From positions 32,001 to 96,000 of the IMG/VR virus record IMGVR_UViG_3300031133_000383: a stretch of DNA of 64,000 nucleotides; one strand, 5' to 3'. The first letter of the stretch is position 1. The number at the start of each line of letters is the position of its first letter. Origin of the DNA: a virus (taxonomy: Duplodnaviria > Heunggongvirae > Uroviricota > Caudoviricetes). A program made the translations under genes and the position numbers. A model generated the notes under the pieces. That model did no database searches and had not been told where the DNA came from. It saw nothing but the letters and a program-made list of their open reading frames with translations. This document shows positions 3,282 through 60,520 of the stretch, piece after piece.

Positions 3282-3998
3282 ATGAAAGATACAATACTTA
3301 AAAATAAGCTCGATGCTTTTTTCAGAAATATTTCTATTGATATCAAGCAGTATGTGCCTGATAGTATTTATATGGGGTCGCATATTTCCAGATTCATTCT
3401 AAACAATGTCAGACAAGGATTACCATTAAAATTAATTACAGATCCATCTTCGGGTATAAATTCGTTATTCATTGGCGATAAACTAATGATGAATTTTATC
3501 ACTGAGCTTGCTGACTATCAGATTGAAACTGTTTTTTATCGTAACAAACAAGTCATTGATATACCACATTTTCAAAATGACATGTATTATATAAAAGAAC
3601 TCTTGAAAAATATAACATTTATGGAGTATCTATTGACAGGAAATGATTTATATTCTCCACTGTTGGATATTTTCGATTCAAATGAAGCAATATTTACTAA
3701 ATTTGTTTCATCTAATGATTTTTTTGATGAGATTTTTGATATAGTTTTTAATGATAAAAATATTTTTATTCATTTTTATAAGCGAGATATCGAAATCACT
3801 ATTGATAGAAGCAATAATAGTATTAGTTTCAGCTTGGATATCAACAAACAAAGAATGAGTAAACTATCTAATTTTCAGGCATTTATTAGTGCTATGAACA
3901 GCAAAATTTATAATCAGGTGGTAAGAAAAAATTTAAATATATCACCATCAGAATTTTTAGTCCAACATAGAGAATTAGTGAATATTTTTGAGTATTAG
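3282..3998 (+). CDS. hypothetical protein, C-terminal-motif family A
   Basis: ends ELVNIFEY. Confidence 0.75.
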   Translation: MKDTILKNKLDAFFRNISIDIKQYVPDSIYMGSHISRFILNNVRQGLPLKLITDPSSGINSLFIGDKLMMNFITELADYQIETVFYRNKQVIDIPHFQNDMYYIKELLKNITFMEYLLTGNDLYSPLLDIFDSNEAIFTKFVSSNDFFDEIFDIVFNDKNIFIHFYKRDIEITIDRSNNSISFSLDINKQRMSKLSNFQAFISAMNSKIYNQVVRKNLNISPSEFLVQHRELVNIFEY

Positions 3999-4034
3999 TT
4001 CTTGAAATGATACAAAAGTATGATAAATTGATTA

Positions 4035-4157
4035 AACAAATTTAAACAGCATAATTATAAACAAATAAGTCTTATTTTTAAATTTTGTTAGTCTAGTTAT
4101 CTCCTTTCTAAGTTAAAAAGACTTAAATTATTATTCCCTCTTATTGAGGGTTTTTTT
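4035..4157 (+). ncRNA. candidate small RNA with anti-Shine-Dalgarno loop
   Basis: TTGAAA (4002) and TG-n-TAAATT (4024) promoter, no ORF, stem TAAGTCTT/AAGACTTA enclosing TCTCCTTT, terminator CCCTC-TTATT-GAGGG-T7. Confidence 0.45.
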
Positions 4158-4220
4158 ATTTTTATTGTTTTTATCAATGATTCGTGATAGAATACTGCGA
4201 ATTGATGTGAGGATCTATTG

Positions 4221-4997
4221 ATGAATGTAAAATTTGGTCAAAAATGTAATGATACACCTTTGTCAGAAGGCAATCTAACTTTTTTCGACTGCAGCTATGA
4301 AGCTATTTATAATTTAACAAAAGATGAACCTGTCGTTGTTTATCCTGTTTACACGCCTAAAAATAGTGCGGCTGGAAAAGCACTTATTCTTTCAGATGAT
4401 GAAACTGTATTAATTGCAAAATTAAGTGTGAATGGTCTTGTCAGTATAGTGGATAAAGCATTATTTGATCGTTATTTTAAAATAAAAACTATGAATCATC
4501 AAGAAGCAGAAAAATGCTGGCTGAAAGTGGTTGAATTGTTCAAGTTAATGGGTATATTCAAATCTATACAACGCTTTCCTTTTAACGATTTTCTATCTAA
4601 TGAGATTTCTAATTTTTGCATTACAGTCTCACGCGATCAAGATTATTTTTTAAATGAGATGTTTGGTAATTTTTCTTCCAATAGAAATATTCATATAGAT
4701 AAAGTCATTGGACTAGATAAAAACGGTTTATTTGAACAAGTTAGTTTCAATGTCTTTCACTCTTTCAAAATAAGCATGCGACCTGTTGATGAAAAAATCA
4801 AAGTAAGTTTCATTTTGAAAGTTTTTAAAGCCTATGCGGTATGCGGTGTTGATCAACAAGAGTCTATTGAAAAAATAATAAAAAAATTGATTAAAGCTTA
4901 CCTTGAAAAAAAATTTATTCATATGGATATTGACTATATTTTAACACCTGATTTTTTTGAACAGTGGAAAATGATTAATGCGATGATTGACTATTGA
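4221..4997 (+). CDS. hypothetical protein, family A
   Basis: GAGG RBS; ends MINAMIDY. Confidence 0.8.
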   Translation: MNVKFGQKCNDTPLSEGNLTFFDCSYEAIYNLTKDEPVVVYPVYTPKNSAAGKALILSDDETVLIAKLSVNGLVSIVDKALFDRYFKIKTMNHQEAEKCWLKVVELFKLMGIFKSIQRFPFNDFLSNEISNFCITVSRDQDYFLNEMFGNFSSNRNIHIDKVIGLDKNGLFEQVSFNVFHSFKISMRPVDEKIKVSFILKVFKAYAVCGVDQQESIEKIIKKLIKAYLEKKFIHMDIDYILTPDFFEQWKMINAMIDY

Positions 4998-5005
4998 GGT
5001 ATAAA

Positions 5006-5752
5006 ATGAATCATTATAAAAATTTAATAAAATTAGTAAAACCAGAGTATCAACCCCATTATTACCTTCAAAAAAAGGTAAATGGTGAAAATAAGTTTGG
5101 TCTGTTTTTCAAAAGACCTGACTACAAGAAAGGTAACTCCAATGGAGTGCTTATTCTAGATGTCAGAAATTCACAAAACCTTATCGAAGTACACAAGAAA
5201 GGAGAAAATCCTTATATTTCAGATTGTTCATATATCTGGAATGAAGAACTATATAAACAACTTGATATTCCTGATGCGGTTTCTGACTTTATTTATTACC
5301 TAGTTGATAGTAATAATAGAAAAAATTATTTTTATTTGTTTTTTTATAATATTTTTAATAAGGCTACGATAAGTGTAAAAAAATCTAATTATTTGACAAA
5401 AATAAAATGTTTAATTTCTAAAGACTTGGCGACTATCGAATATTTTTTGGTCACTATTATCAGTAATATTGATTTCAATACAGAAATGTCTTTATTGATA
5501 GATGACAAATCTACTCAGGATATGCAACATTTTGAAAGGTGTGTTCCTTATGTAAAAAATGATAATTTGATTATCAATGTTAAAACGGGTGAAGTATTTT
5601 GTGAAGATAAAAATGGGTTGCCTATCAATATTATGAGTATAGATACATTTAAACAACAAAACATTTTAAATACCGAAACTATTAAACAAACAGCAAAAGA
5701 CGCTTTAATGAAAAAGATTTCTCATATTGATGGTTTTGAATGGAGTAACTGA
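5006..5752 (+). CDS. hypothetical protein
   Basis: GAGG RBS; operon-like spacing with both neighbours. Confidence 0.75.
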   Translation: MNHYKNLIKLVKPEYQPHYYLQKKVNGENKFGLFFKRPDYKKGNSNGVLILDVRNSQNLIEVHKKGENPYISDCSYIWNEELYKQLDIPDAVSDFIYYLVDSNNRKNYFYLFFYNIFNKATISVKKSNYLTKIKCLISKDLATIEYFLVTIISNIDFNTEMSLLIDDKSTQDMQHFERCVPYVKNDNLIINVKTGEVFCEDKNGLPINIMSIDTFKQQNILNTETIKQTAKDALMKKISHIDGFEWSN

Positions 5753-5753
5753 T

Positions 5754-6443
5754 ATGAATATAGAATTAGAAAAATCTATTGCAGCAAAATTAGTCACTTC
5801 CATGGCATTTGATTATATGGATAAAGAATCCATGTTTGATGGTGTTCCTATTGGTATTGGGGCGTGGGAATTTGAATATGTTGAACCTTCCATTTTTCAA
5901 TCGAAAAGTTATGATATTTTGGCAAAGTTCAAATATAACAAACAAAACACTTCAAACACTGTAAAAGATTTGGGAACCATCGTGCTAAGCATGGACAAAG
6001 TATTCAAAATTTTTCAATTTGAAGATTTAAATAAATTTGATTTTATGAAACTTTATTTTGAGTATTTTTCCATTGTCTCAAGAAAAAACAAATTAGGAAG
6101 TGTTCCCAATTTAATAGTAAAAGCTAAATTTGAAGGAGATCAGATTGATGAATTCTTTTTTAATATACCCAGTTTTGAATTTGACAATGATAATGTACTT
6201 GTTATTAATACGCATGAATTTGCTTATAAGAATGGAGTGTATTATGCAGAAAGTGCAGAAGGATTACATAAAATTTCTAAAAATCTATTTTGCAAACATA
6301 TTCTTATATGTTACCTAAATTCAATAGTTTCAAATATTAATCGTATCTTGAATATTTCAATTGATATTGTAGATACCAATGAAAGAGATGTTGTTAAAAT
6401 GATCGAAAAATATAAAGATGTCGTTGATATGATGTATAATTAA
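5754..6443 (+). CDS. hypothetical protein, family A
   Basis: GGAG RBS; ends DVVDMMYN. Confidence 0.8.
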   Translation: MNIELEKSIAAKLVTSMAFDYMDKESMFDGVPIGIGAWEFEYVEPSIFQSKSYDILAKFKYNKQNTSNTVKDLGTIVLSMDKVFKIFQFEDLNKFDFMKLYFEYFSIVSRKNKLGSVPNLIVKAKFEGDQIDEFFFNIPSFEFDNDNVLVINTHEFAYKNGVYYAESAEGLHKISKNLFCKHILICYLNSIVSNINRILNISIDIVDTNERDVVKMIEKYKDVVDMMYN

Positions 6444-6454
6444 ATTTAAGATTT

Positions 6455-7142: not shown

Positions 7143-7697
7143 ATGAAGATACAAATATCAAATATGATTAAGGACGATATTTATTTTAATACAGTGGTAG
7201 ACTGTATTGATTCTTTTTTAACTTATGAAAATAGATTTGGTTTATTTAATGAAAACTATAAAGATCATATATTTCAGATAATTGATGATTTTAAGAGATT
7301 CAATAAATCTTGTAAAATTTCCAAAGTAGCTGTTGAGATATTTATTCATGATTATACATTTCTATCGAAATATAAATGTAATCCATCTTTGTACATACCA
7401 ATAGACCATTACAAAAAAAGCCCATTTTTTCAGATCGATTTAACGGAAAATCTTCATCTTTCTATTGAAAATCATCGCGAAGATATAAAATTCATTACAA
7501 ACACTTATTTTAAAGATTTAGGCAAAAACATTATTACTTTTCATCCTAAAGACAATTACGGAAAGGATTTTAAAGATTGCTTATTTAACCATTTAATCAA
7601 ACCCAAAATAAATAGCCTTGCTGAATTTTCAGAGTGTACTCAGATTGAACACCTAACTGATGACGATATTTCGATTATCAATATGTTTAATATTTAA
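7143..7697 (+). CDS. hypothetical protein, family A
   Basis: ends SIINMFNI. Confidence 0.75.
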   Translation: MKIQISNMIKDDIYFNTVVDCIDSFLTYENRFGLFNENYKDHIFQIIDDFKRFNKSCKISKVAVEIFIHDYTFLSKYKCNPSLYIPIDHYKKSPFFQIDLTENLHLSIENHREDIKFITNTYFKDLGKNIITFHPKDNYGKDFKDCLFNHLIKPKINSLAEFSECTQIEHLTDDDISIINMFNI

Positions 7698-8075: not shown

Positions 8076-8281
8076 ATTTATTAATTATTGAACAGTAACA
8101 AAATCAGTATATTTTAAATATACTTTTTTTTATTATTTTCATTTGTATACAATATTAAAATAGAATATAGATTGCTGTTTAGTCATTTAATATTAATAAA
8201 TTATAATATTTTATGTTATAATATTTGACATTTTTGCTTTTTTGGCCTATCATTTCTCTAATAAACCAAAGGAGTTGTCAA

Positions 8282-8791
8282 ATGTCACGTTCCCTTACAT
8301 TAAGTCTTGTAGGAGCAGTTGGTGCGATAATTGCAGTATGTTGTTATGCAGCAACAGACGAGCAAAGCTCTAAAAAAACTACATCACAAGCTCCTATTTC
8401 TATTACAATTGAAGAAGATGGTGCTGCAACAGGTATTGCAACTAAAAATCAAGTTGAAAAAATTTATGATGTTCGTAAAGGTGAATTGGATAAAAACTTT
8501 AAAGAGGCACGTAATAAAAAAAGAGATGCAAAGGAATTGAAATTGATCAACCTTGCTTATGATAGTGTTGATTGTATGCAAAAAAGTGTTGAGCACTTTC
8601 CCGAGTTGATTGACGTAATTGATGGTAAACATATGGAAGCCAATAATGTTGCCGAAGTCATGGAAAATAATTGTGTAACGGATGTACTAGCTCATGTTAA
8701 AAGAGATATTCCAGAAGACTTAGATGCTTCTGAAAAAATATTCAAGGAGTTAGGTTTTACCATCCCTAGTGATTTAGACGATTTTCAATAA
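8282..8791 (+). CDS. exported or membrane-anchored hypothetical protein
   Basis: AAGGAG RBS; N-terminal hydrophobic segment; terminator downstream. Confidence 0.8.
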   Translation: MSRSLTLSLVGAVGAIIAVCCYAATDEQSSKKTTSQAPISITIEEDGAATGIATKNQVEKIYDVRKGELDKNFKEARNKKRDAKELKLINLAYDSVDCMQKSVEHFPELIDVIDGKHMEANNVAEVMENNCVTDVLAHVKRDIPEDLDASEKIFKELGFTIPSDLDDFQ

Positions 8792-8805
8792 TAGTATTTA
8801 TATTT

Positions 8806-8830
8806 AAAAGCCGCCATCTAGGCGGTTTTC
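8806..8830 (+). terminator. intrinsic terminator
   Basis: AAAAGCCGCC-ATCTA-GGCGGTTTT hairpin. Confidence 0.7.
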
Positions 8831-8912
8831 TATTTTAATTATTTTTATTTTGATTGCTTTTTTTTCATAAGTGGTTATGATTAATTCTAACAAATGAATA
8901 CAAGGAGTTTAC

Positions 8913-10163
8913 ATGTTTTTCCATGAGCACATCGTTGCTTTATTCGGGGTTACACCTGATAGTTTTTTTACATCCATTATAGAGTCCTGCATCGCTACAC
9001 TTATTGTTGTAGGTGGCTACCTACTACTTAAAAATACTGTTATAAAGGTAATTAGAAAACATATTGAAAAATCAGATAATGATTTTATTGTCAATTTATC
9101 AAGACATAGAATTCTTAGAAATATGACATTGATCATCCCCTTTGCTATTTTGTATTCTTTCAAAAATGTTTACCTGAATCAGGTTGTAGCCAATATTTAC
9201 GAAAAAGTTATTTTTACAACATTGGTATTTGTAAGCACTATGTTGATTTTCTCCATATTCAATGTAATGTCAGATTATTATGAAAAAAGTGAAAGAGTCA
9301 GTGACAAAATACCTGTAAAGCCTTTTTTTCAAATATTAAAAGTTATTTTATTCTTGATTTCAATTATGGTTGTAATTGCTCATTTTGTAGATCGCTCTCC
9401 TGTTTATATATTAAGTGCAGTCGGTGCTGCATCTGCTATCATCATGTTTATATTCAAAGATACCTTACAAAGCTTTGTAGCCTCTTTTCAAGTAACCATA
9501 CACAAAAGTGTAAAAGTGGGGGATTGGATTGAAGTTCCCAAGTATGCTGTTGATGGTGAAGTACGTGAAATTAATTTAAACCTGATTAGTGTTAAAAACT
9601 GGGATAATACAACAACGGTTATTCCTACTTACTGTTTGCTGACAGAAAGTTTTAAAAATTGGACAACTATGTTTAAAAATGGTCGTAGAATTAAAAGGGC
9701 TATCAACATTGATGTTAATAGTATCAAACAGCTAACTGAATCTGATATAAAGCGTCTTAAACAGGTAAAATTGATTAAACAGTACCTAGAAGATAAAGAA
9801 CAGGATTTAAATGTACAAAACAAAGACCTAGACAATAATGAATTGGTAGCCGTCAATGGTAAGAAATTGACAAATATTGGAACATTCAGAAAATATGTTG
9901 AGTATTATCTGCGACAACACAGTGAAATAATTCAAGACCAAATGCTGGTGGTCAGACAATTGGAAAATCGTTCAGAAGGATTACCTATTGAGATCTATTG
10001 TTTTACTCACAAAACATTCTTAATGGATTTTGAACCTGTTCAATCTGATATTTTTGATCATCTATATTCTGTGGTTACTTTATTTGGATTAAGAGTCTAT
10101 CAACAACCTTCTGGAGATTTTTCGGCCATCGGGAAAGATTTCAATAAGTTAATTCATAATTAA
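8913..10163 (+). CDS. small-conductance mechanosensitive channel, MscS family (YbdG-like)
   Basis: several TM helices; VGDWIEVPKYAVDGEVREINL, KNWDNTTTVIPTY, GRRIKR, TNIGTFR, GLPIEIYCF motifs. Confidence 0.92.
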   Translation: MFFHEHIVALFGVTPDSFFTSIIESCIATLIVVGGYLLLKNTVIKVIRKHIEKSDNDFIVNLSRHRILRNMTLIIPFAILYSFKNVYLNQVVANIYEKVIFTTLVFVSTMLIFSIFNVMSDYYEKSERVSDKIPVKPFFQILKVILFLISIMVVIAHFVDRSPVYILSAVGAASAIIMFIFKDTLQSFVASFQVTIHKSVKVGDWIEVPKYAVDGEVREINLNLISVKNWDNTTTVIPTYCLLTESFKNWTTMFKNGRRIKRAINIDVNSIKQLTESDIKRLKQVKLIKQYLEDKEQDLNVQNKDLDNNELVAVNGKKLTNIGTFRKYVEYYLRQHSEIIQDQMLVVRQLENRSEGLPIEIYCFTHKTFLMDFEPVQSDIFDHLYSVVTLFGLRVYQQPSGDFSAIGKDFNKLIHN

Positions 10164-16547: not shown

Positions 16548-17231
16548 ATGAACGATTATAATGACGATCTTATTGAAAAAATTTATGAGTTGACAATGTG
16601 TAATTCTCTTGTCACATTTCATCAAGATTTCAGTTATGATAAGCAAAATAATTTTAAAAATGCACAAGAGTTTACTTTTGATAAAAGTCTTCTTCAGTTT
16701 TCTTATAAAGATATGATTGATTGCTATGCTTTAAAGGACACTGTGCATAAAATGGATCAAGGCGAGAATGATTTGAGTTTTGATCAATTTGAAACAAGTT
16801 GGCAGCCAGAAGGCGATTTGAAAACTCGTTTTGATCTTGCTTATGTTGAAATCAATAAACTTCGAACTGGTCTTCACAATGTCATTACTGCACTAGGAGA
16901 AAAACCATCTGAGTTTATTTCCATTCGCCATTCCGTGTATTTTGATATGAATAATAAGCTATATCAAAATGAGATCAAAGTAGATTTATGTTATCGTAAT
17001 AAGTGTATCAACAGCAGTTTTATGATTTACGTCAGTGATTTTAATAATTATTTACGTATAACAATAAACTGTGGTCAGCATTGCAAGTCTATCAATGTTC
17101 AGAAAATAAATCCATTTTCCTTATCTTTTATGATATTTGATGAAAAAGAAGATTTATTTAATCTAGAAGATATTTATGATATTGATCAAGTTGTGGATCT
17201 TTTCAAAGTAAATCACATGTCAATCTATTAG
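16548..17231 (+). CDS. hypothetical protein, family A
   Basis: GGAG RBS; ends KVNHMSIY. Confidence 0.8.
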   Translation: MNDYNDDLIEKIYELTMCNSLVTFHQDFSYDKQNNFKNAQEFTFDKSLLQFSYKDMIDCYALKDTVHKMDQGENDLSFDQFETSWQPEGDLKTRFDLAYVEINKLRTGLHNVITALGEKPSEFISIRHSVYFDMNNKLYQNEIKVDLCYRNKCINSSFMIYVSDFNNYLRITINCGQHCKSINVQKINPFSLSFMIFDEKEDLFNLEDIYDIDQVVDLFKVNHMSIY

Positions 17232-17239: not shown

Positions 17240-17884
17240 ATGAAAATTAATGAAATATTAATAAATAACCCTCATATTAAATTTAAACATCTCGATGAAA
17301 CCAATATGGAGGATGGGGTGATGTTCTTTCAAGAGCATGCTATCTGTAGTAGGGCAAACGATGATAGCTATGTTTTGATCCTGAGTAATGGTTTTAATTC
17401 AGAGACATCTCCACACGATTATAACGATTTTATTAATCAGTATATACCTAACTGTCAATTTATTGAAGAAAGGATCTCTAATAGCCTCAGATACTTCTAC
17501 AATAACATTATTGTAGCCACTGGTGAATTATTCAAAGTCCATTCTTTAAAATTTTCCAATATGTGCAAAGCGAGTATCAGGTTATTTTTTGATATACACA
17601 CACAGGAATTAAAAGAAATCAAAATATTTATGTTTCTGCATATTGAGCACAATGAAAAACATATCTATTTAAATATTTCAACAAACATAGATAAAGATTA
17701 CAATGTTTCATTTTCTGTCATGAAAAATGGAATATCCTATAATAATATGGAAAGGGTCAACCAACAATTCTTGAATATTATTTGTATGGAAAAATTTGAA
17801 AATGTGATCAATGATCTTTATTTTGATTATAGTTTTGAAGATGTTTTAAGATTGAGGCAATTATTGATTATCAATAAATATTGA
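17240..17884 (+). CDS. hypothetical protein, family A
   Basis: ends QLLIINKY. Confidence 0.8.
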   Translation: MKINEILINNPHIKFKHLDETNMEDGVMFFQEHAICSRANDDSYVLILSNGFNSETSPHDYNDFINQYIPNCQFIEERISNSLRYFYNNIIVATGELFKVHSLKFSNMCKASIRLFFDIHTQELKEIKIFMFLHIEHNEKHIYLNISTNIDKDYNVSFSVMKNGISYNNMERVNQQFLNIICMEKFENVINDLYFDYSFEDVLRLRQLLIINKY

Positions 17885-17899: not shown

Positions 17900-18592
17900 A
17901 TGAACCTATTAATGGAACATATGATCGAACCATTCATAGGGGGAGTTCATAAAATGAACTTGAGTGCCATAGAAAAAAAGTACACAAATGTAATTAAGCA
18001 TTCCATTTTTCTGAAAATGAGTGCAAAGCCAAGCTTTATCTTGTCCGATAGTTTTAGGTTTCATCTATGTCCATTTCAGGATAAAATAACATTGATATTT
18101 GTGGTATCAGTCAATGAGGGATCATTTTCTAGGATACTCCAAAAACATGGTTATTTTCTAAAAAAAGAACTAAACGATTTAGTAGACAATCATTTAAATA
18201 AATGTCATCAGGTGATCCACTTATTAAAATCTGTCGTGAAAAAGATATTTGTTTTTCAAATAGAGTTGTTGTTGACTTTCAATACCAAGAACGAATTAGA
18301 ATCTTGTACTTTAAATATTATTATCGATATGGATGATATTGTTCAAATGTATGAAATTAAAGTCAACATTGATGATTTGAATCAATGCCAGTATTTTTAT
18401 CGTTCTATTGATTCAAATAAAAACTTCTGCCAGAATACAATAAATCCAACTGATCTTGGGAATCATTTTATTATTGAGTTCATAAGACAAAAACTCAGGG
18501 TGCTTAAATTAGATAACGATATAGATCTTGAATCCATTTCAATCAAACAGATTAATGAATATTTGAATTTGATTTCAATGCACAGTGTGTAA
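17900..18592 (+). CDS. hypothetical protein, family A
   Basis: ends NLISMHSV. Confidence 0.8.
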   Translation: MNLLMEHMIEPFIGGVHKMNLSAIEKKYTNVIKHSIFLKMSAKPSFILSDSFRFHLCPFQDKITLIFVVSVNEGSFSRILQKHGYFLKKELNDLVDNHLNKCHQVIHLLKSVVKKIFVFQIELLLTFNTKNELESCTLNIIIDMDDIVQMYEIKVNIDDLNQCQYFYRSIDSNKNFCQNTINPTDLGNHFIIEFIRQKLRVLKLDNDIDLESISIKQINEYLNLISMHSV

Positions 18593-20470: not shown

Positions 20471-21133
20471 ATGAATAGTAGTAGAAAATCAAATATCATT
20501 GAAAGTCTTGAAAAAAATATCAGTGCTTCTGGTAAAATTTTGAAATTGACAGAAGCAGCAGACTATAAGCCTTTAGAGCGAGATGATGAGTTCAGGTTTT
20601 TTATTGATGATAATTATTATACTGTTTATTCAAATGATGATATACAACCATCTCACATCTATGATTTATTATTTATTGATGAAGATAGCAGCCTTAGTAT
20701 TTTTGAAACTTTTTCAACATTGAGCAAAGCAGCATTTTTTAAGTGTTTAAATACCTTTTATCAGGATCTTGCATTTCTATATTTTTTTGCTTTTGGGCAG
20801 TCAGCAGACGTAAAGAAACCAGAATCATTGAATGATATTCTTGAAAGTATTTATTATGATGGTGATAACTATTTTTTTCGTCTAACAGTGGGTAACATAG
20901 AAACAGATGCCGTTTTTCTTATCTATTTTGATTTTTTTATTAATACTGAAACACATGATGTTTATTGGGAAAATCGATACAGATCACATATCAATGGTAA
21001 TTTGGTTTCTTTTGATACTTATGATGATTTAAAACAGAGTTTTATTAAACGCTATATATTGAGTCCCCTGAATAAAAGTCAACCCGAACTGGCGTGGAAT
21101 GATTACAAAATTTTGCAGATAATAAATCATTAA
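20471..21133 (+). CDS. hypothetical protein, family A; paralogue of the next gene
   Basis: GAGG RBS; ends PLNKSQPELAWNDYKILQIINH. Confidence 0.8.
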   Translation: MNSSRKSNIIESLEKNISASGKILKLTEAADYKPLERDDEFRFFIDDNYYTVYSNDDIQPSHIYDLLFIDEDSSLSIFETFSTLSKAAFFKCLNTFYQDLAFLYFFAFGQSADVKKPESLNDILESIYYDGDNYFFRLTVGNIETDAVFLIYFDFFINTETHDVYWENRYRSHINGNLVSFDTYDDLKQSFIKRYILSPLNKSQPELAWNDYKILQIINH

Positions 21134-21141: not shown

Positions 21142-21825
21142 ATGCATTCCACAGCACTTATAAAATCTTTACGTTCAATCATTAAATATCCTTATCAGAT
21201 AGATGGAATGCGATCACTCAATGATTCATCCGCCATGGTTCAAATATCCAATCTTGATAGGCCAGTAGATAAGTCTATGATAATGTATGTGTCTAAAATT
21301 TATACTCAAAAAAATAAATCAAAATTCTATCTTGAATTTGATGATCCTTTGCTGTTACTTAAATTTAACGATATCTTTGAAAATGAAATTGATTTTTTAA
21401 AAATATCACAAGAGATGTATTACAAGTTTAATTTTATCTATACTTATATACTGGGCAAGTCCGTCAATTATAATGGGTTTCCACACAGTCTCAAAGATAT
21501 GATTGAATATTATGACGCTACACATAGTCAATCAATGGGTAGTTATATATTTAAAACAGTGGTAACCGAAGATAATGATCATGAACCTTTAAAATATATG
21601 TTTATTTTAAGTTATGATATTTGTGAAAACATTTTTAAAATTGATTTTGATTTTTCAATGAATATTTTAACGCCACAAATTAAAACTTACTTTATTGAAT
21701 CTGCTCAAATAGAAAAAGTTATTGATATCCTTGTTTCTCAATATGCTTGTAAACCTTTAGATAAATCTCAACATGATTTATGTTTGTCCGATCATGCTAT
21801 TCTAAAAATACTTAATTATAATTAA
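21142..21825 (+). CDS. hypothetical protein, family A; paralogue of the previous gene
   Basis: ends PLDKSQHDLCLSDHAILKILNYN. Confidence 0.8.
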   Translation: MHSTALIKSLRSIIKYPYQIDGMRSLNDSSAMVQISNLDRPVDKSMIMYVSKIYTQKNKSKFYLEFDDPLLLLKFNDIFENEIDFLKISQEMYYKFNFIYTYILGKSVNYNGFPHSLKDMIEYYDATHSQSMGSYIFKTVVTEDNDHEPLKYMFILSYDICENIFKIDFDFSMNILTPQIKTYFIESAQIEKVIDILVSQYACKPLDKSQHDLCLSDHAILKILNYN

Positions 21826-21902: not shown

Positions 21903-23735
21903 ATGAATTTTATTGAGCAAGCAAAATTGTTTGAACGAGCCGAAAATCTTAAACACAACTATCCTGAGAATTATAGTTTAACTTCAATGTTGAAGCTACC
22001 TATTAAAGAACCTTCCTATGTTATTAATGATATTCTTTATGAATTTAAGAAAATGGCGGATAAAAATATTGTTTCTCTTTTAAATATCATCCCAAAAATA
22101 GACAAAAATGAATTCAACGAAGTAACTGATCTTTACAATACTTCTGATTATCATAATCATACCAAAGCGACTACTTCTAACGTTTTAAACTATATAGAAA
22201 ATATTTACAACCAATTTAAAAATATAGCCAATGAATATGGTATTGTTTTCCCAAAAAGTATTGAATTAGAAAAAAATAATATACTACAAGAAGTTGAAGA
22301 TTTTACAAATAAATTTGAACAGTTTTCAGATTTTTTTGAAAAATATAAAGTGATAGAAAAATTTTATGTACAAAACAAAATGAGTCCAGAAGCTGATTTT
22401 TACAGGGAAGAACTGCAAAACACTATAGAAGAATATAGTCATATAGTCAATATTAATATGGCTAAATTTTTTATAAATAATACAGTAAGTCATGGTCAAA
22501 ATTCAAAGGATATTGTATTGTTTCAATTATTTGATAGGCTTTCTATTTTAATTTCAACGATGCAAGATGAAATGAAATCACAAAATCTACAATCGCTGGC
22601 TACAATGGCCAGTCAGTTTATTATTGCTCAATCTATCGATAGCAGTGATGTAAAAAGTTTTCTAACAACAAAAAATTTTAGTGATGATATAGACTGTCGT
22701 ATACAATTGACCAGTTCTCAAAAAATAAGTGAAATGATTAACTTTAAAGATGGATCAACTATTGTCAAACAACGTAATAACCCTTATGAAGAAGTATCAG
22801 TAGATAAAGTTCGAAATGTAACTTATGACTTATTTGACTCTATTATTGATTATAAATTTAGAAAAAAACCAAGAATTGGAACATTGTTCAAAGAGAAGTA
22901 TAAAGAAGAAAGGGGGCTATTATTTGAATATGTTGATGTAGCTATGAATACTTATTTAGACAATGAAGCTATTTTAAAAAATGTTAAATTTGATTTATCT
23001 ATTTTTAAGTCTAAGGATTTTGAAGAAATAGACGATGCAATGAATGCCAGTATCAATACGTATAAAATAGATCGTTATGCCAATACAATATTGAGTACAA
23101 AATATAAACATTTGTTGACAGCAAACGCATTGGAAAGTTTCAAGGAACTTTATGAGGCCAAAATTTCTACAACTGATTTACAGAATTTAATCGGAAAAAA
23201 ACTTGCAGCGATTCAAAGTCCAGAAGAATTTGAGCAGTATCTTGACAAAGTTGTCAAGCAATTTAATGGTTTCAATACAGAAACTCTTTTAACCAAGTTG
23301 TCTTCTTTCAACATTGAACCATTATTATCTGACAATGATGTTTATGTGTTTGAAATCAAAAATTTTGAAGAATCAAAAAATTTGGGTAGTGCCAGTTGGT
23401 GTATTGCTCGTTCTGAACATTATTTTGAAAATTATACAGATTATGGCAATCGTCAGTTTTTCATCTATGATTTCAATAAAAAAGAAACCAGTAATGAGTC
23501 AATGATTGGCATCACAATAAAACAAAATGGTGATTTTCATACTCAGCATTTGAAAAATGATGATTTTATTCGAGCAAATGACTTTTTGAAAGATATTCGG
23601 AAGAGATTGATTTTAAAAGAACCTGAAAAGTATGAATTAAATAACCAATTAAAGCAAGAGCTAGGCATTGAGAACAATAATGATTTCAATGATGAAAAAA
23701 TTGAAAATAAGAAAAAGTTAAAGGTGGTTATTTAA
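21903..23735 (+). CDS. large hypothetical protein with GS-x-SWCI domain; paralogue of 39916..41787
   Basis: shared blocks ILSxKYK, IGKKLAA, GSxSWCI, IYDFNK, TQHLKNDD. Confidence 0.85.
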   Translation: MNFIEQAKLFERAENLKHNYPENYSLTSMLKLPIKEPSYVINDILYEFKKMADKNIVSLLNIIPKIDKNEFNEVTDLYNTSDYHNHTKATTSNVLNYIENIYNQFKNIANEYGIVFPKSIELEKNNILQEVEDFTNKFEQFSDFFEKYKVIEKFYVQNKMSPEADFYREELQNTIEEYSHIVNINMAKFFINNTVSHGQNSKDIVLFQLFDRLSILISTMQDEMKSQNLQSLATMASQFIIAQSIDSSDVKSFLTTKNFSDDIDCRIQLTSSQKISEMINFKDGSTIVKQRNNPYEEVSVDKVRNVTYDLFDSIIDYKFRKKPRIGTLFKEKYKEERGLLFEYVDVAMNTYLDNEAILKNVKFDLSIFKSKDFEEIDDAMNASINTYKIDRYANTILSTKYKHLLTANALESFKELYEAKISTTDLQNLIGKKLAAIQSPEEFEQYLDKVVKQFNGFNTETLLTKLSSFNIEPLLSDNDVYVFEIKNFEESKNLGSASWCIARSEHYFENYTDYGNRQFFIYDFNKKETSNESMIGITIKQNGDFHTQHLKNDDFIRANDFLKDIRKRLILKEPEKYELNNQLKQELGIENNNDFNDEKIENKKKLKVVI

Positions 23736-26003: not shown

Positions 26004-26058
26004 TAGACTTGTTCTCAATAACAATGTATTATTGTTGTCCAGATATAAAGGATTAAAT

Positions 26059-39913: not shown

Positions 39914-39915
39914 TA

Positions 39916-41787
39916 TTAACCCATTTTTATTTTATTTGGTTTTGCATCGAATTTATCTATTTCAGGATAAAGTTTTTCTTTTAAATTTATATCTAAATTT
40001 TCTTTTTGTATTATTGCCTTGGTTGTTGAAAGATAAATTTCATACATCAGTGTATTTTCTGAAAATGTAACATAATCATCATTTTTTAAATGTTGTGTTT
40101 TTAATACACCTTGCTCATTGATGGTAAAACCAATGACAGATTCATTATGCATGCTATCTTTGTTGAAATCATAAATAATAAGTTGTTTGCTGTGATCACT
40201 TGTGTAATAATCAAAATAAGATTCCTGTCGATGTATACACCAAGAAGGACTTCCAAAGTCTTTACATTGAGTATAGTTTTCTATTTCAAAAGCAATTACA
40301 TTCTCTTTATTATATAATGGTTCAATAGTGTGCTTATTTAATTTAATGTTGACTGCATCAAAAGTAAAACCATCTAGTTTATTAAAGACTTCTTTTAATA
40401 ATTGAGTGAAATCATCAGGAGATTTTAAAGCTGCAAGTTTTTTACCAATGTAGTTTTGTAAATCTTTTTCAGTTAAATTCTTTTCATATAGATCTTTTAA
40501 ATAAGGGTCTGATTCTTCTGTATGTAAAAATTTATATTTTGAACTCAAAATACTATTAGTAAATTGATTTATTTTATAAATTTTGATTTGTTCATTTAAA
40601 TAGTCGTCTATTTGTTCAAATCCTTTATTGGTAATGTCTAGTAAATTTATTTTCATATTTTTGAGAATGTGTTCATTTTCAGCATAGGTATTGATTGTAT
40701 TCATACCTGCATTGAATATAGACAGTGTGAAACCATCTTCTAAAAATTTATTATGAAAGTGATTAACCAACTTAGGCTTGTTTTTTAAAGGAATACTCAT
40801 TAATTCTTTGGTAATAGTTTCCATTAACTTCACATATTCTTTTGAATGAATAATTGTTTTAAAATCGTTATTTTTATTTCTTATTATGATACTTCCATCA
40901 TTTAATCTGTGTACATATTGAATATGCTGATTATTTAATTGAACGGATGCATCAGTATCGTCAGCTAGCAGTTTATCAAACAAAAAGTTAGAAACTTCGG
41001 TACTCATTGTTTTTTTGTGAATTAAATCATCTGCTAAACTAACATATTGAGATTTTATGTTTTCGGATTTGCCTATCTTGATTAATTCGTAGGTTACTTC
41101 TTTTATTTCATCTCTGCTTTTAATGAAATCACTTTTTTTATTTTGTATATCTTTATGTAGAGATTCTTTCAATATACTACTGTTTTCTAATAACAATCTA
41201 TTCAATTTTTTGTTTAGAAGCATACATTCATCAATATCAAGTGATCCTTCATGCAACTTATAAAATTTATCAAAATCTCTTAATTTTCCCAATGTTTTTA
41301 ATACATTTTGAAAATACTTTTTTTGATTATCGATATTGTCTAATTCTACTTGTACTCTAGCAACAAGATGGCTGGCAATATCTTTATCTTTAATGTCTTC
41401 TTTTAAAACATTAACAATATTATGTCCAGTAACTTGAACTTGTTTTATTTCATTTTTGATTGTTAGTAAAACATCCATATTGCCATAAATTGAAGACTCC
41501 ATGATAGTGTTCATATATTCTTTGACATCATGATTTCTTAGTCCATCTGGTGTTGTATTAATGAAATCAATTATTTCTGAGTTAATATTTAGTGTTCCAA
41601 TATCAGAACTTTTTATAATAGCTATTTTTGAATCAAAATTATCTAAAGTATTAAAGTCTAAATTTAAATATTTATTAGGGTTAAAATTTAAATTAGATCC
41701 TTCCAATCTATTCTCGGCCTTAATCGGAATACTCGATTGTTCATTTAAGGCATAAAAAAAAGATTCAATATCATCTTGTGTGTTCAT
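39916..41787 (-). CDS. large hypothetical protein with GS-x-SWCI domain; paralogue of 21903..23735
   Basis: IGKKLAA, GSPSWCIHR, IYDFNK, TQHLKNDD. Confidence 0.85.
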   Translation of the reverse strand: MNTQDDIESFFYALNEQSSIPIKAENRLEGSNLNFNPNKYLNLDFNTLDNFDSKIAIIKSSDIGTLNINSEIIDFINTTPDGLRNHDVKEYMNTIMESSIYGNMDVLLTIKNEIKQVQVTGHNIVNVLKEDIKDKDIASHLVARVQVELDNIDNQKKYFQNVLKTLGKLRDFDKFYKLHEGSLDIDECMLLNKKLNRLLLENSSILKESLHKDIQNKKSDFIKSRDEIKEVTYELIKIGKSENIKSQYVSLADDLIHKKTMSTEVSNFLFDKLLADDTDASVQLNNQHIQYVHRLNDGSIIIRNKNNDFKTIIHSKEYVKLMETITKELMSIPLKNKPKLVNHFHNKFLEDGFTLSIFNAGMNTINTYAENEHILKNMKINLLDITNKGFEQIDDYLNEQIKIYKINQFTNSILSSKYKFLHTEESDPYLKDLYEKNLTEKDLQNYIGKKLAALKSPDDFTQLLKEVFNKLDGFTFDAVNIKLNKHTIEPLYNKENVIAFEIENYTQCKDFGSPSWCIHRQESYFDYYTSDHSKQLIIYDFNKDSMHNESVIGFTINEQGVLKTQHLKNDDYVTFSENTLMYEIYLSTTKAIIQKENLDINLKEKLYPEIDKFDAKPNKIKMG

Positions 41788-43661: not shown

Positions 43662-44285
43662 ATGACTAAAAATACAGCTACTCTATCTTCCATCCTCAAT
43701 GATGATGAACATACATTATCTATAACAGTCACAGAACTTGAAAGACTTGGATTTAAAGATAATGGTATGTTTTTTGATTTGTATGAATTTTTTTATGAAA
43801 ACAAAAAAATACTGATAAAACTCACTTCAAACATTATAACCAGTAAAATTTTTTATATCAAAAACGATGCTGGTAAATATGTCATACATAGAGATGATGA
43901 TTTGCCTGCATCGTTTAGCTATCGATACGATATTGAATCAAATGATTATATATGTTTTGAAAAAGATTGGAGACTTTACGATAAACTAGTAAGAATTGAT
44001 AAAGATCTTCCTATTAGTCATTTCATTTATCCTGATAAGAGCCATGTGTTCTATTTTTATATTGATAAGACAGATGATTATAAACACAGATTACAATTAT
44101 ATGAATATTTTAATCAAAATGGTCATATAAAATATGAATTCTTTTTTTTGAATCAAAGAATCATGATGAAAAACATACAGGGATTTTTCACAGATATAGA
44201 TGATACATCATATGAATCACTGATAAATTTTGCTAATGGTCTGTCTAGTGAAACGTTAAAACTATTTGAAATGTACATTCAGTAA
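43662..44285 (+). CDS. hypothetical protein, family A
   Basis: GGAG RBS; HRDDDLPA segment; ends KLFEMYIQ. Confidence 0.8.
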   Translation: MTKNTATLSSILNDDEHTLSITVTELERLGFKDNGMFFDLYEFFYENKKILIKLTSNIITSKIFYIKNDAGKYVIHRDDDLPASFSYRYDIESNDYICFEKDWRLYDKLVRIDKDLPISHFIYPDKSHVFYFYIDKTDDYKHRLQLYEYFNQNGHIKYEFFFLNQRIMMKNIQGFFTDIDDTSYESLINFANGLSSETLKLFEMYIQ

Positions 44286-46771: not shown

Positions 46772-46841
46772 AGGCTTTTTATTTGTCCAAAATTGCAAAA
46801 ATATTTTATTTATGATACAATCTCCAAACGGAGAAACCATC

Positions 46842-47540
46842 ATGTCTTTAGAATTAATAGATTCCAAACATAGTTTACATTATCATAACAGTTTTTGTTA
46901 TTATTTAAATTTGTTAGAAGAAAAATTATGTTCTGATACAACATCTCTTTCTTTGCGATTTGATGAAAATACTGAATATCCTATATCCATCGATATGAAT
47001 GAAAAAGTAAGATATCATTTATTCAGTTATGATGACAAAGAAAAGTGCTATCACTTTATTTCAGCAGAATCCATTTTTTTTCATTGTGCCAAAAAGAAAA
47101 AAGACTCACAGAAACACTACTCAAAAGCTGCCGATTTAGCTTATATTGAATCTATATATGATTTTCTTAAAAAAACCTTTATTTGTTCCATGATTTTTGA
47201 TAACAGTATGAAGGTTAACTATCGTGTACAACTAGTAGATAATTTAGGAGAGTTATCAGTTTTGCATGTCTTTACTGGATTGCTGGGCTATTCGATTGTA
47301 TTCAATGACTCTCTCGAATTATTAGATGTTTCATTTAAATCAACAACATTATCAGAGGGGATTCTCAATAACCGTACAGATTTAACGTTGAATGAAAAAA
47401 TCTGTGGGTTTGATTTCTATGTTTCTTATTATTACAATCATGATTTTAAACAGTTTATTGATGCTCAGGTTGATATACAAGAAGTTACACTGGACTCTGC
47501 CGCACGTTTTTTAAATCTTTATCAAATGCTCAATATCTGA
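46842..47540 (+). CDS. hypothetical protein, family A
   Basis: GGAG RBS; ends NLYQMLNI. Confidence 0.8.
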   Translation: MSLELIDSKHSLHYHNSFCYYLNLLEEKLCSDTTSLSLRFDENTEYPISIDMNEKVRYHLFSYDDKEKCYHFISAESIFFHCAKKKKDSQKHYSKAADLAYIESIYDFLKKTFICSMIFDNSMKVNYRVQLVDNLGELSVLHVFTGLLGYSIVFNDSLELLDVSFKSTTLSEGILNNRTDLTLNEKICGFDFYVSYYYNHDFKQFIDAQVDIQEVTLDSAARFLNLYQMLNI

Positions 47541-47596: not shown

Positions 47597-48283
47597 ATGG
47601 ATAAATTAGCTGCATCACACCTTTTCAAAGAATACCTGATGTCTTTTGAAAAAGAAACCGACACAGATCTCAATTTCTATCTTTATGCTTATATTAATGA
47701 GAAAGATCATTGTATACATTTTGATCCAGAAGCAAGAAAATTCATGAATTCATCACTGTTTTCATCAGTTGATTATGATAATTTCAATTCTTTCAATTTT
47801 ATTTCACAAGGCAGTAATTATTTGCTGTCAGCTTTTGAAAATCCAGACAAAAATTTCCAAGGTTTCATGTGGATGACCTTTTTTCAAAAATTGTGTAATA
47901 ATGTAAAGGTATCTTTTCAAGAATTGTTTCCAATTTTATCTACAAGTCGAATGGACCTATACAATGTTAAGTTTAATGAAAATGTTGATTTGATCACACA
48001 TGAATTTAGTATCTCTGTTTATTGTTATGAATATTCAGCTATCTATGTTCATTTTATATTGGATAGTCAATTAAACCTTATTGACGTATCTATTGGGGAT
48101 CGGTATGTATGCTCGGTTCTTGATAAAGCTAAGAACATTCAGGAAAGAGTTAACTATTTGAAAGTGTTTATGGCCTATTTTTTAGACGAATCATTTAGAA
48201 AACATCTATTATGTGATTATAAGGAAATTGATCAACATAATATTGAAAGCTATCTTACTGTCTATCATCTTCACAAGGTATAA
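47597..48283 (+). CDS. hypothetical protein, family A; paralogue of the previous gene
   Basis: GAGG RBS; LNLIDVS versus LELLDVS; ends TVYHLHKV. Confidence 0.8.
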   Translation: MDKLAASHLFKEYLMSFEKETDTDLNFYLYAYINEKDHCIHFDPEARKFMNSSLFSSVDYDNFNSFNFISQGSNYLLSAFENPDKNFQGFMWMTFFQKLCNNVKVSFQELFPILSTSRMDLYNVKFNENVDLITHEFSISVYCYEYSAIYVHFILDSQLNLIDVSIGDRYVCSVLDKAKNIQERVNYLKVFMAYFLDESFRKHLLCDYKEIDQHNIESYLTVYHLHKV

Positions 48284-56652: not shown

Positions 56653-56727
56653 GCCGAAATAGCACAGTGGCAGTGCAACCGCCTTGTAAGCGGTAGGTCG
56701 TCAGTTCAAATCTGACTTTCGGCACCA
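56653..56727 (+). tRNA. tRNA-Thr(TGT)
   Basis: GCCGAAA/TTTCGGC acceptor stem; ACCGC-CTTGTAA-GCGGT anticodon arm; CCA. Confidence 0.95.
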
Positions 56728-56788
56728 GTTTTATGTTCTTGGAAAACACATGGTGCAATTAGAGCAGAAGTGTCTTTTTCAAGTCAAT

Positions 56789-56910
56789 GTCTGTATCAGG
56801 CGAATAAGCAGTGATCAAGGTTTCTGACAATACTAGTTAAGTCAGATAAGGTAACCGGAACTGATGACCGAAATCATTAATTATCTGTGGTTCAAGTCCA
56901 CTTGCAGGCA
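56789..56910 (+). ncRNA. tRNA-like RNA (acceptor stem and T-arm with an oversized core)
   Basis: GTCTGTA/TGCAGGC stem; GTGG-TTCAAGT-CCAC T-arm; internal TCTGAC/GTCAGA hairpin; no CCA. Confidence 0.5.
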
Positions 56911-56929
56911 GACCGAATTTTATAGTCAA

Positions 56930-57003
56930 GCGGAATTGGTCTAGTGGTTGGGCCGTAGCCTTCCAAGCTACAGAGACGAGTTCGATCCTCGTATTCCGCT
57001 CCA
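56930..57003 (+). tRNA. tRNA-Gly(TCC)
   Basis: GCGGAAT/ATTCCGC acceptor stem; GTAGC-CTTCCAA-GCTAC anticodon arm; CCA. Confidence 0.95.
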
Positions 57004-57260
57004 ATTTTGAAAGCTGTTGAAAAGCAGTTTCAAATTAGGTGATACGCTACCTTGAGTGCGAACTTGAAAATATGTCATTCAAATGATATAAAAGGTGTTC
57101 AGACCTCAGAGTCGGTAATTATGTCCGCTGGCTCTTTAAATCAATTCTGAGATTCAAATTAGGACCCGCGATAGCACTGAAACTGGTCAGTTTATAATGA
57201 ACATATAAGTTAATGTTAGGCAGCGGCTAACAAACAACCGATACTATTATCGGTTTTTTA
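57004..57260 (+). ncRNA. candidate structured RNA at the end of the tRNA operon
   Basis: GC-richer than its surroundings; nested helices; ends in terminator AACCGATA-CTAT-TATCGGTT followed by a T run. Confidence 0.5.
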
Positions 57261-57289
57261 TTTTTGGTAGTCTTTAATTGGAGATTGAT

Positions 57290-57679: not shown

Positions 57680-57815
57680 ATGTTAACTATGTTTAAAAAT
57701 TTATTATTCAATATTATTATACTTTGAGAGATATAAATTTTCTCAATTTAAATAAAAATGTTGCCTTATGTCAAAAAATTTGATATACTCTTTGAAAATT
57801 CAGGAGAGCCAAATA

Positions 57816-59318: not shown

Positions 59319-59390
59319 TAAATTGAGACGAGTGACGTATTGATTTCTATCAATGATTAACTTATAATAAATTCAATAAAGGACGCTATC

Positions 59391-59429
59391 ATGAACAGAA
59401 AAATTATCTCCAAAACACGAAACGTCTAG
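59391..59429 (+). promoter_or_regulatory. candidate leader peptide MNRKIISKTRNV with overlapping hairpin
   Basis: TTGATT-17-TATAAT promoter; AAGGA RBS; stop codon lies inside the ACGTC...GACGT hairpin. Confidence 0.45.
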
Positions 59430-59477
59430 GCTGTTACTTTCGAGGTACATCCTTGACGTAAAAATTAGGAGAATAGT

Positions 59478-59735
59478 ATGATTAAAAATAAAAACAGGGC
59501 ATTAAGACGTTTTATTGATGCTAAAGTAATCAAAAAACAAATCAATATTTTGAAACAGTATAATTCTTACAGTGACAAGTTAATTGTGGGTAAGTTAATC
59601 AAGCATCATGCTTTGAACTGTGGTATATCTGGTTGCTTTTGTTGCAGCAACCCACGTAGGATTTATGGATATAAGACACTTAAAGAAAAAGTTTCCGTGC
59701 AAGATTTTAAACAACAGATGAAAGATTTAGAATGA
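59478..59735 (+). CDS. small basic Cys-cluster (probable Zn-binding) protein
   Basis: AGGAG RBS; RALRR...CGISGCFCCSNPRR. Confidence 0.75.
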   Translation: MIKNKNRALRRFIDAKVIKKQINILKQYNSYSDKLIVGKLIKHHALNCGISGCFCCSNPRRIYGYKTLKEKVSVQDFKQQMKDLE

Positions 59736-59806
59736 GCCTAAGCTCATTTTTTTTATATACTTTTTAATGCAAATCTGTTATAATTATATCTTTATAGGAA
59801 TTTTAT

Positions 59807-60520
59807 ATGGTTCATTCAATGTCAAACACTTTTACAGAAGAACAATTGTCCGATGAAGCAGAATCTTTTGCAAGAGAGTTTTATACGAGGTATTCAGGTG
59901 CCTTTATAGGAAAATCTTTCAATAAATCCATGGGAACTTTTCAGCATACCCAAGCATCTGATGGCTTGGGAAATTTTCGTTACGATACCTATATTGTCAA
60001 TCCAATGAATCTAAATAAAACTCTTTTGTCTGTATTCATGATTTATAAAAATAAAAAAATATCCAAACAAATTGTATTGTCTGCTGATTTTGAGCAGCTA
60101 ACTAAATTTACACTTTCTACAATCAACTGGCACGAATGTTATTCAAAAGCGTTTGAGTTTACAGGTCGTTTTTTTCAAACACAATACGATTACGAGAAGT
60201 ATCCTCTGATCAAAATTGAAGTGGATCATGATTTTAATATTAACAAAGTTTTGGCTTCTTTTGATTTATGTACCCAACATACATATACCGTATCAAGTGG
60301 TGATTTCTTTCTTTATTCTAAGCCTACAATTGACTACTGTGTGAATCACGATCTACCCTTTGTGAATCAACAAGAATTTTATGAATTTATATTTCTTAAG
60401 TCTTATTTGAATATGGATAGTTTATTTAATATCGAAAATTTGACAGAAATAGAGAAGTTTTTATATTATATTGACAACAAGGAAGAATTTCATAACTTGT
60501 TGAAAATGACCATTATATAA
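59807..60520 (+). CDS. hypothetical protein, family A
   Basis: ends NLLKMTII. Confidence 0.8.
   Translation: MVHSMSNTFTEEQLSDEAESFAREFYTRYSGAFIGKSFNKSMGTFQHTQASDGLGNFRYDTYIVNPMNLNKTLLSVFMIYKNKKISKQIVLSADFEQLTKFTLSTINWHECYSKAFEFTGRFFQTQYDYEKYPLIKIEVDHDFNINKVLASFDLCTQHTYTVSSGDFFLYSKPTIDYCVNHDLPFVNQQEFYEFIFLKSYLNMDSLFNIENLTEIEKFLYYIDNKEEFHNLLKMTII

Follow-up and report, generated by a model that had tools for sequence, protein, structure and literature searches.

Analysis of a 64,000-nucleotide window of viral DNA (bases 32001-96000 of the IMG/VR record IMGVR_UViG_3300031133_000383, Caudoviricetes) and of the whole contig to which it belongs (G000; 437,043 bp, 31% GC) showed that many otherwise dissimilar proteins end in the same tail, i.e., an amphipathic alpha-helix of approximately 15 residues placed at the extreme C-terminus. 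An earlier note, made from the letters of the window, had listed 16 such proteins; this is an underestimate of scale, as about 90-100 proteins per 437 kb, corresponding to about 16-18% of the proteins of the clade, carry the tail.

To call open reading frames (ORFs), we used a simple longest-ORF caller, which yielded 530 ORFs of at least 80 aa in G000; start codon errors made by such a crude caller do not affect the tail counts, as stop codons fix the C-termini. Counting the last residue as -1, Met was found at position -4 in 102 of the 530 ORFs (19%) as compared to 2.7% of all residues, a genome-wide enrichment of 7.1-fold, and Leu, Ile or Val at -7 and -6, Glu at -5, and Ile or Tyr at -1 were also enriched genome-wide. 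A position-specific scoring matrix (PSSM) of 20 residues was built from the whole genome with leave-one-out scoring, using as a threshold a score of 5.1, which represents the 99.9th percentile of approximately 111,000 internal windows. The matrix converged on 84-87 members at the exact C-terminus (87 matches as compared to approximately 0.5 expected), and the threshold was reached by 16% of termini as compared to 0.1% of internal windows of the same proteins. When the scored window was moved away from the terminus, the number of matches fell from 87 at offset 0 to 7, 3, 0 and 2 at offsets 1 to 4, respectively, and it was no greater than 2, i.e., background, at each offset above 2 out to 40.

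It could be argued that this pattern is a chance product of an AT-rich, Ile- and Leu-rich proteome, combined with members that were picked by eye, as Leu, Ile and Lys each represent approximately 9% of the G000 proteome and as three of the 16 proteins picked initially fail to score. However, the Met enrichment at -4, the difference in match frequency between termini and internal windows and the replication of both the motif and its position in independent records (see below) refute this explanation, the probability of which we consider negligible. Enrichment at the terminus over internal windows, for which the earlier note had proposed a test, was found in the whole contig as well as in its relatives.

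A signal at the DNA level (e.g., promoter, ribosome binding site, terminator or recombination site) was also ruled out. The codons used at position -7 include TTA, GTA, ATT, GTT, TTG, ATA, CTT and CTA, the tail may be followed by any of the three stop codons, and the 40 nt downstream show no conservation. As codons vary synonymously, all stops occur and the downstream sequence is not conserved, selection acts on the protein. At this level, conservation exceeds background from -1 to approximately -15 and is anchored at the stop codon, with hydrophobic residues at -13, -9, -7, -6, -4, -3 and -1 and acidic residues at -15, -11 and -5. Position -4 is almost always Met, the last residue is mostly Ile or Tyr, and approximately 40% of members have Glu at -5.

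Apart from the tail, the carriers have little in common. Their median length is 246 aa (10th to 90th percentile, 188-313 aa); they are mostly soluble, share no common N-terminal feature, are distributed evenly along the contig and on its two strands, and frequently form tandem arrays in which the paralogs can be recognised. Of the 87 tail proteins, none matched a Pfam family at E 0.001 or better, as compared to matches to 33 Pfam families for 87 size-matched non-tail proteins and to 83 Pfam families for the 122 longest proteins without a tail. This agrees with the initial impression that the tail is absent from recognisable enzymes. Only two of the 87 tail proteins had PHROG matches, both weak, and no Pfam or PHROG family is defined for the tail families. 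The protein bodies, described at first as mostly unalignable by eye, showed no detectable relation in three further comparisons: 78 of the 102 proteins with Met at -4 were singletons by BLAST, iterated hidden Markov model (HMM) searches with the tail removed gave 72 clusters, and profile-profile comparison with hhalign reached a best probability of 27% among 472 of the 2556 cluster pairs (i.e., the seven largest clusters against all others). Compared to the bodies, the last 15 residues are considerably more conserved, both within families (42-44% as compared to 25-27% identity) and across all members (19.5% as compared to 6.6%).

The genes that carry the tail look real. G000 shows bacterial translation signals, with a Shine-Dalgarno peak at -12 to -8 and a Shine-Dalgarno-like motif in 53% of ORFs as compared to 6.5% of random positions; this rate is the same for tail carriers (46/87). 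In addition to this normal rate, the confidence of the structure models described below (mean 89 and 86.5) and, as weak evidence, contigs from RNA libraries suggest that these are genuine genes.

The tail is inherited. When a profile of one seven-member family (approximately 300 aa) was compared to 1.84 billion proteins, it matched 32 representatives, of which the full-length ones all end in the tail at the exact terminus (e.g., VLVEMIKI, VIVSMIRL, KVMEMTKY); a second tail family has homologs at 50-76% identity. Overall, Met at -4 is kept in 42 of 43 full-length database homologs. When applied to the related IMG/VR records G001 and G003, the PSSM trained on G000 identified 41 of 259 and 48 of 268 ORFs, respectively (89/527); there were 89 matches at offset 0 and no more than 3 at any other, with a match rate of 0.105% for internal windows. 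All 17 detectable homologs of members in these two records keep Met at -4 at a mean identity of 37%, while only 3 of the 115 homologs of non-members score as tails. Tails were also found in 2 of 21, 7 of 22 and 2 of 8 ORFs on further related contigs and in 8 or 9 of 25 ORFs on a contig of 1.86 Mb. Conversely, none of the 482 ORFs of a distant relative, Xanthomonas phage XacN1 (50% GC), carries a tail according to the same PSSM, and none of the 22 ORFs common to XacN1 and G000 is tail-bearing. IMG/VR scans with two single G000 proteins found no relatives, a search of deposited phage records found neither a DNA match to the window nor a homolog of a tail family, and comparison of the tail profile with PDB sequences gave nothing below E = 2. 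We found no paper describing the motif.

To characterize the bodies, AlphaFold2 models were made from alignments of two tail families, covering two of the 72 body clusters. Model 1 (mean predicted local distance difference test score [pLDDT] 89.2; predicted template modelling score [pTM] 0.88) consists of two alpha/beta units followed by helices at residues 254-277, 281-284 and 289-303, while model 2 (pLDDT 86.5, pTM 0.81) starts with helices, continues with an antiparallel sheet of eight strands and closes with further helices, the last of which is helix 227-258. According to DSSP, the tail lies within the terminal helix of each model, i.e., helix 289-303 in model 1 and the end of helix 227-258 in model 2. 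For both models and for P0001, a tail protein encoded in the window, neither Foldseek against PDB and BFVD (E 0.001 or better for the models) nor shape- and feature-based searches of the ESM Atlas yielded a significant match. VIA-align scores did not exceed Z 6.7, all within the range that the tool assigns to common arrangements: for model 1 the neighbours were Med17 (Z 6.4-6.7), the C-terminal domain of T4 MotA (6.2) and frataxin (approximately 5), and for model 2 the best Z was 5.3. These confident models predict two different alpha/beta bodies that match no known fold; both combine helices with an antiparallel sheet and stay below Z 7 to known folds, and they differ in topology and in their top neighbours. 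As a lead for function, the N-terminal alpha/beta unit of one tail family (residues ~8-200 of model m00e23477ca04; genome position 260.8-268.3 kb) showed a weak likeness to the "double-wing" DNA-binding domain at the C-terminus of T4 MotA (Z 6.2 and 5.9, with approximately 85-90 residues aligned), a score too low to call.

The terminal helix, its Met and its distance to the stop codon have thus been kept across approximately 90 paralog lineages and related elements. As the bodies diverged beyond recognition in the same lineages, we hypothesize that the helix is under an external constraint that all carriers share; if a helix had contacts only with the body that carries it, the two would be expected to co-evolve, whereas here the helix alone is conserved. 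We judge the chances to be about even that the tail is a common docking or address tag read end-on by one receptor. Under this hypothesis, a common receptor outside each protein would hold the helix constant and would bind it end-on, which would require a fit of the free C-terminus or of the stretch that follows the Met. By means of the tag, a large and variable repertoire of cargo or effector bodies would reach the same destination or machine, which might be either something that the element itself builds (e.g., a compartment or the inside of the virion) or one hub of the host. We infer the existence of the receptor and the purpose of the tag from what was observed directly, i.e., the motif and its lock to the terminus, the selection on the protein, the inheritance of the tail, and the orphan status and diversity of the bodies. 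The earlier proposal of a constant docking tail on variable bodies stands as far as a tail is concerned that is selected as protein, locked to the stop codon, inherited and better conserved than the bodies; the hub, the adaptor function, packaging and export are hypothetical.

Several observations weigh against a docking tag. Searches of the contig for a PDZ domain, a ClpX-like unfoldase, a bacterial microcompartment (BMC) shell protein, an encapsulin, an HK97 capsid protein, and FtsK-like and VirD4-like proteins did not find a receptor. More specifically, neither BMC shell proteins (PF00936, for which controls matched) nor encapsulin (PF04454) nor HK97 capsid protein (PF05065) had a match in the 437 kb contig, which may be a fragment. 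In records G000-G004 (approximately 1.12 Mb), which are fragments of larger contigs, VirD4/TraG-type ATPases (PF02534) had no match and FtsK/EccC-type ATPases (PF01580) had one sub-threshold match of 14.8 bits. The two AAA+ proteins of the contig are of the MoxR type (AAA_3/AAA_5), not ClpX-like, and are paired with DUF2201 metallopeptidase-VWA proteins. The analogies to ClpX docking and to F-box/PRANC adaptors drawn in the earlier note thus find no support on this contig, as the 87 tail proteins also include no F-box, PRANC or ankyrin match. In both monomer models, moreover, the tail helix has a pLDDT of approximately 71-95 with neither a disordered linker ahead of it nor any segment below 50, and approximately 8 of the 15 tail positions are hydrophobic; high hydrophobicity and good pLDDT without a linker would also fit a helix packed on its own body. 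Finally, the narrow size range of the carriers and their tandem arrays fit one expanded family.

Two candidate partners were rejected. R2K ATP-grasp enzymes were dropped as possible readers of the C-terminus, as they are present in the tail-less XacN1 and were not found in three tail-bearing relatives. The MoxR-VWA pairs are not specific to the clade and were not retained as a hub; such a pair has been reported for group 2.2 jumbo phages (PMC7824862), and the XacN1 annotation includes an ATPase and a vWA-domain protein. Complex prediction for two members with unrelated bodies (A4 and A7) gave a score of 0.00, which weighs neither for nor against binding.

The features listed above suggest an alternative, which is the main rival but which we consider less likely than a docking tag, i.e., that the carriers represent a single, hugely expanded and hyper-diverged paralog family of approximately 250 aa alpha/beta proteins, in which the terminal helix has an intramolecular role (e.g., packing across a beta-sheet), is simply the slowest-evolving part and has no shared partner. 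In addition to the lengths, the arrays, the linker-free tail and its hydrophobic positions, both models show N-terminal helices, an antiparallel sheet and C-terminal helices, and both neighbour lists contain generic helix-on-sheet folds (e.g., cystatin-like, PRELID1 and lipovitellin). On the other hand, these generic folds are all that the two lists have in common, two alpha/beta units in one model contrast with a single eight-strand sheet in the other, and no homology of the bodies is detectable by BLAST, HMM clustering or hhalign. Body residues that contact the helix should be conserved along with it, yet conservation is limited to the helix. An intramolecular role would also leave unexplained why only one or two extra residues are tolerated after the helix.

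We also considered whether the tail could be a C-terminal degron for the timed destruction of a large class of proteins (perhaps early or host-takeover proteins) by an AAA+ protease of the host or the element that reads free hydrophobic C-termini. ClpXP, FtsH, Lon and Tsp read non-polar C-terminal tails in a position-dependent manner, the position lock of the tail is strict, and a related contig (L026) encodes a 946-aa FtsH-like AAA+/Peptidase_M41 protein. G000, however, has no ClpX-like gene, its only Peptidase M41 match (17 bits) is below the curated cut-off, and its AAA+ proteins belong to the MoxR type. Short, unstructured sequences are typical of known degrons, as compared to the conserved 15-residue helix found here, which is contiguous with the fold. 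Overall, a degron appears unlikely.

Similarly unlikely, in our view, is a role of the tail as a signal for export of cellular effectors (Dot/Icm- or ESX-like), with the replicon representing part of an unusual bacterial genome of approximately 1.86 Mb. In three assemblies, homologs (50-76% identity) lie on contigs that each span 1.84-1.86 Mb (e.g., L033, JGI 3300031134 Ga0308158_10000001, 1,859,102 bp), IMG/VR treats four relatives as "proviruses" of 150-190 kb excised from larger contigs, and no terminase, gp23, HK97 capsid or sheath gene was found in the 437 kb contig. The Dot/Icm E-block may resemble the acidic positions upstream of the hydrophobic residues at -4 and -3, and the ESX signal may resemble the end formed by Leu at -7, the Met and an aromatic residue. 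Nevertheless, known secretion signals are far less conserved than the tail, neither coupling ATPase of such systems was found in G000-G004, the contig has no small-subunit (SSU) rRNA gene, and the family was not found in GTDB species genomes, in which P0050 has no relative. The contig is also strongly phage-like, with matches (E 1e-25 or better) to 34 PHROG families, e.g., T4-type RNA ligase, Thg1, HNH endonucleases, DNA polymerase and tyrosyl-tRNA synthetase (TyrRS), and with 26 tRNAs arranged partly as arrays, an amber suppressor among them. IMG/VR classifies G000 as a linear virus record with an estimated completeness of 98% (CheckV). The replicon represents one of two things, i.e., a phage-like element of a size far above all described ones or a bacterium with a small genome that has escaped recognition.

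Returning to the docking tag, its most far-reaching form would be a proteome-scale C-terminal address code, in which a Met-centred helix and a dedicated receptor would direct orphan proteins that evolve fast, roughly a hundred in every 0.4 Mb, to a single place (e.g., a compartment built by the element, or the virion for the purpose of co-injection) in giant phage-like elements of leaf and dairy bacteria, which may reach 1.86 Mb. We put this forward tentatively, as a possibility that falls clearly short of an even chance. Metagenomes that contain G000 sequence come from 18 studies and cover phyllosphere, leaf, seed, plant and dairy samples, and the exact P0001 protein was located on contigs of up to 604 kb.

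Within the window, all 16 C-terminal endings in the earlier note are present as written. Among the 15 in register, -4 is occupied by Met in nine, Ile in four, Leu in one and Ala in one, and -7 by Leu, Ile or Val in all 15, as originally counted. Most of these proteins are strong or borderline members by PSSM score, and three are weak. Eight + strand ORFs score between 12.6 and 18.7, values reached by at most 1 of the approximately 111,000 internal windows: 3282-3998 (ELVNIFEY, with Ile at -4; 14.6, and no internal window as high), 4221-4997 (MINAMIDY; 18.7, without a Pfam match), the tandem trio 16548-17231 (KVNHMSIY; 15.3), 17240-17884 (QLLIINKY, with Ile at -4; 12.6) and 17900-18592 (NLISMHSV; 12.8), 30371-31027 (WLLEAIDY, with Ala at -4; 16.8), 43662-44285 (KLFEMYIQ; 15.2) and 59807-60520 (NLLKMTII; 15.2), which encodes P0001, a protein with its own sequence as its sole database match. 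Three + strand ORFs are borderline with scores of 4.4-4.7, just below the threshold, i.e., 7143-7697 (SIINMFNI; 4.4), 20471-21133 (KILQIINH, with Ile at -4; 4.7) and 46842-47540 (NLYQMLNI; 4.4). The weak candidates, also on the + strand, are 5754-6443 (DVVDMMYN, with Met at -4 and Val at -7; 0.5) and 28324-28926 (VLVEMLQL, in which the last 8 residues fit, with Met at -4; 0.5); the latter has a weak UBA_3 match (E 0.0015) under the curated cut-off. For 47597-48283 (+; TVYHLHKV), a score of -1.0 does not support membership. The tally stated for these picks was nine strong, four borderline, three weak and one offset, while only eight strong and three borderline ORFs were given by name.

Two endings deviate from the common register or frame. 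ORF 21142-21825 (+), which ends in AILKILNYN and had been described as offset by one residue, scored -8.9 in register and 6.6 in the window shifted by one, and thus represents one of the seven offset-1 cases of the genome. The ending TILDIFKQ, previously assigned after frameshift repair, was located on the + strand at 26850-26873 together with a stop codon (the ending itself at 26850-26870), in a frame other than that of ORF 26032-26730; it may be a tail remnant separated by a putative frameshift. Short contigs of four metatranscriptome libraries map to the window, three of them inside tail-bearing ORFs (including 46841-47105 in ORF 46842-47540 and 60069-60297 in the P0001 gene). These contigs are compatible with transcription of tail ORFs but represent weak evidence and no proof; parts of the window without such contigs are uninformative on expression.

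By far the greatest depth of the RNA libraries in the window was observed in the bin 56789-56915, which adjoins tRNA-Thr (56653-56727) and tRNA-Gly (56930-57003). Here one metatranscriptome contig (run X15, depth approximately 98) joins position 56915 back to 56789, a back-joint of 127 nt that may stem from a small RNA that is repeated, circular or permuted, or may be an artefact of assembly. The window also contains large ORFs of 541-623 aa without a Pfam match at 21903-25360 and 38264-41787.

Elsewhere in G000, tRNA arrays include an amber suppressor tRNA (anticodon CTA) and a tRNA-like gene whose anticodon has four bases (agaa), at genome positions 375,947-376,020 and 389,162-389,237; no signal of stop codon recoding was seen in the contig, in which TAG serves as the stop in 59 of the 530 ORFs. 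The two MoxR-type AAA+ ATPase genes are arranged in tandem at approximately 154.4-162.6 kb, each followed by its DUF2201 metallopeptidase-VWA gene (L006:1405-2664 with 2778-4085, and L006:6692-7954 with 8171-9634), and the first ATPase also has a C-terminal BRCT domain. Two expansions distinct from the tail class were observed, i.e., eight paralogs of DEDDh_C (DNA polymerase III epsilon-like) exonucleases and three IS605 OrfB/TnpB (Cas12f-like TNB) proteins. Additional aminoacyl-tRNA synthetases, GatA/GatB and NAD salvage genes are also encoded, and DnaK is 73% identical to Pseudomonas-type DnaK; Pseudomonas-like Gammaproteobacteria are the putative hosts. On the related contig L026 (Logan SRR23945768; 2352-7371), the FtsH-like protein mentioned above lies beside a 729-aa AAA protein, and neither has a counterpart in the 437 kb contig.

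Most genes of huge phages are orphans that offer no starting point for experiments. The tail groups approximately one sixth of a proteome into one functional class by a single short, easily mutated feature, and this feature is conserved across related elements detected in numerous metagenomes from plant surfaces and dairy. Should it serve for docking or as an address, a 20-residue peptide used in a pull-down would provide a direct route to the receptor, and the tail would define the cargo set of a sorting, packaging or turnover pathway and could serve as a portable tag for biotechnology. If the carriers instead represent one hyper-diverged family, few larger lineage-specific expansions would be known from phage-like genomes; with either reading, a large block of viral dark matter becomes experimentally tractable. 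An address code, if real, would represent a protein-sorting system without a described counterpart in phages, and elements of 1.86 Mb, if real, would be far beyond any known phage genome.

Several known systems resemble parts of this pattern. As a docking or address tag, the tail would act in the manner of the first two described here, but it differs from them in its strong sequence conservation and in the lack of a linker and of a shell gene. Encapsulation peptides of BMCs are short terminal amphipathic helices of approximately 15-20 residues, found on unrelated proteins, with a hydrophobic face that binds the shell; their sequence is unconserved, they occur at either terminus behind a poorly conserved linker, and extra residues often follow them (PMC4594438). 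The tail is likewise a terminal amphipathic helix, as judged by conservation from -1 to -15 and by DSSP in two models. Unlike these peptides, however, it has a near-invariant Met, is found strictly at the C-terminus, comes immediately after other helices without a disordered linker in the two models, and occurs on approximately 90 carriers per element rather than on a handful of enzymes, in a contig without a shell gene. Encapsulin cargo-loading peptides are also C-terminal tags on diverse proteins, which there address cargo inside an HK97-fold shell (review PMC7355545). In the contig, no encapsulin or HK97-type capsid gene was found. Moreover, cargo-loading peptides are extended and rich in Gly and Ser, not helical.

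Poxviral ankyrin/PRANC families are large paralog sets that join variable bodies to a C-terminal, helical F-box-like module, which binds one hub. Their bodies consist of recognisable ankyrin repeats and their hub is the eukaryotic Skp1, whereas the tail bodies show no detectable relation to each other or to any Pfam family and the host is bacterial. Position-dependent C-termini with a hydrophobic residue or Met at a fixed distance, sometimes with acidic residues upstream, are found on many unrelated effectors of type VII (the ESX/T7SS EsxB tail) and type IV (Dot/Icm T4SS) secretion systems; compared to these signals, the tail differs in spacing, is much more conserved and occurs in records in which the coupling ATPase was not found. 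SspB carries its docking peptide at the extreme C-terminus as well, but is a single ClpX adaptor protein, as compared to the proteome-wide class observed here alongside AAA+ proteins of the MoxR type. The capsid targeting sequence of phage T4, which loads internal proteins into the head, is N-terminal and removed by the prohead protease, whereas the tail is C-terminal and, with Glu at -5 in approximately 40% of members, does not fit the L-x-E cleavage consensus. Like the T4 sequence, however, the tail is a short shared tag that could load unrelated proteins into a head.

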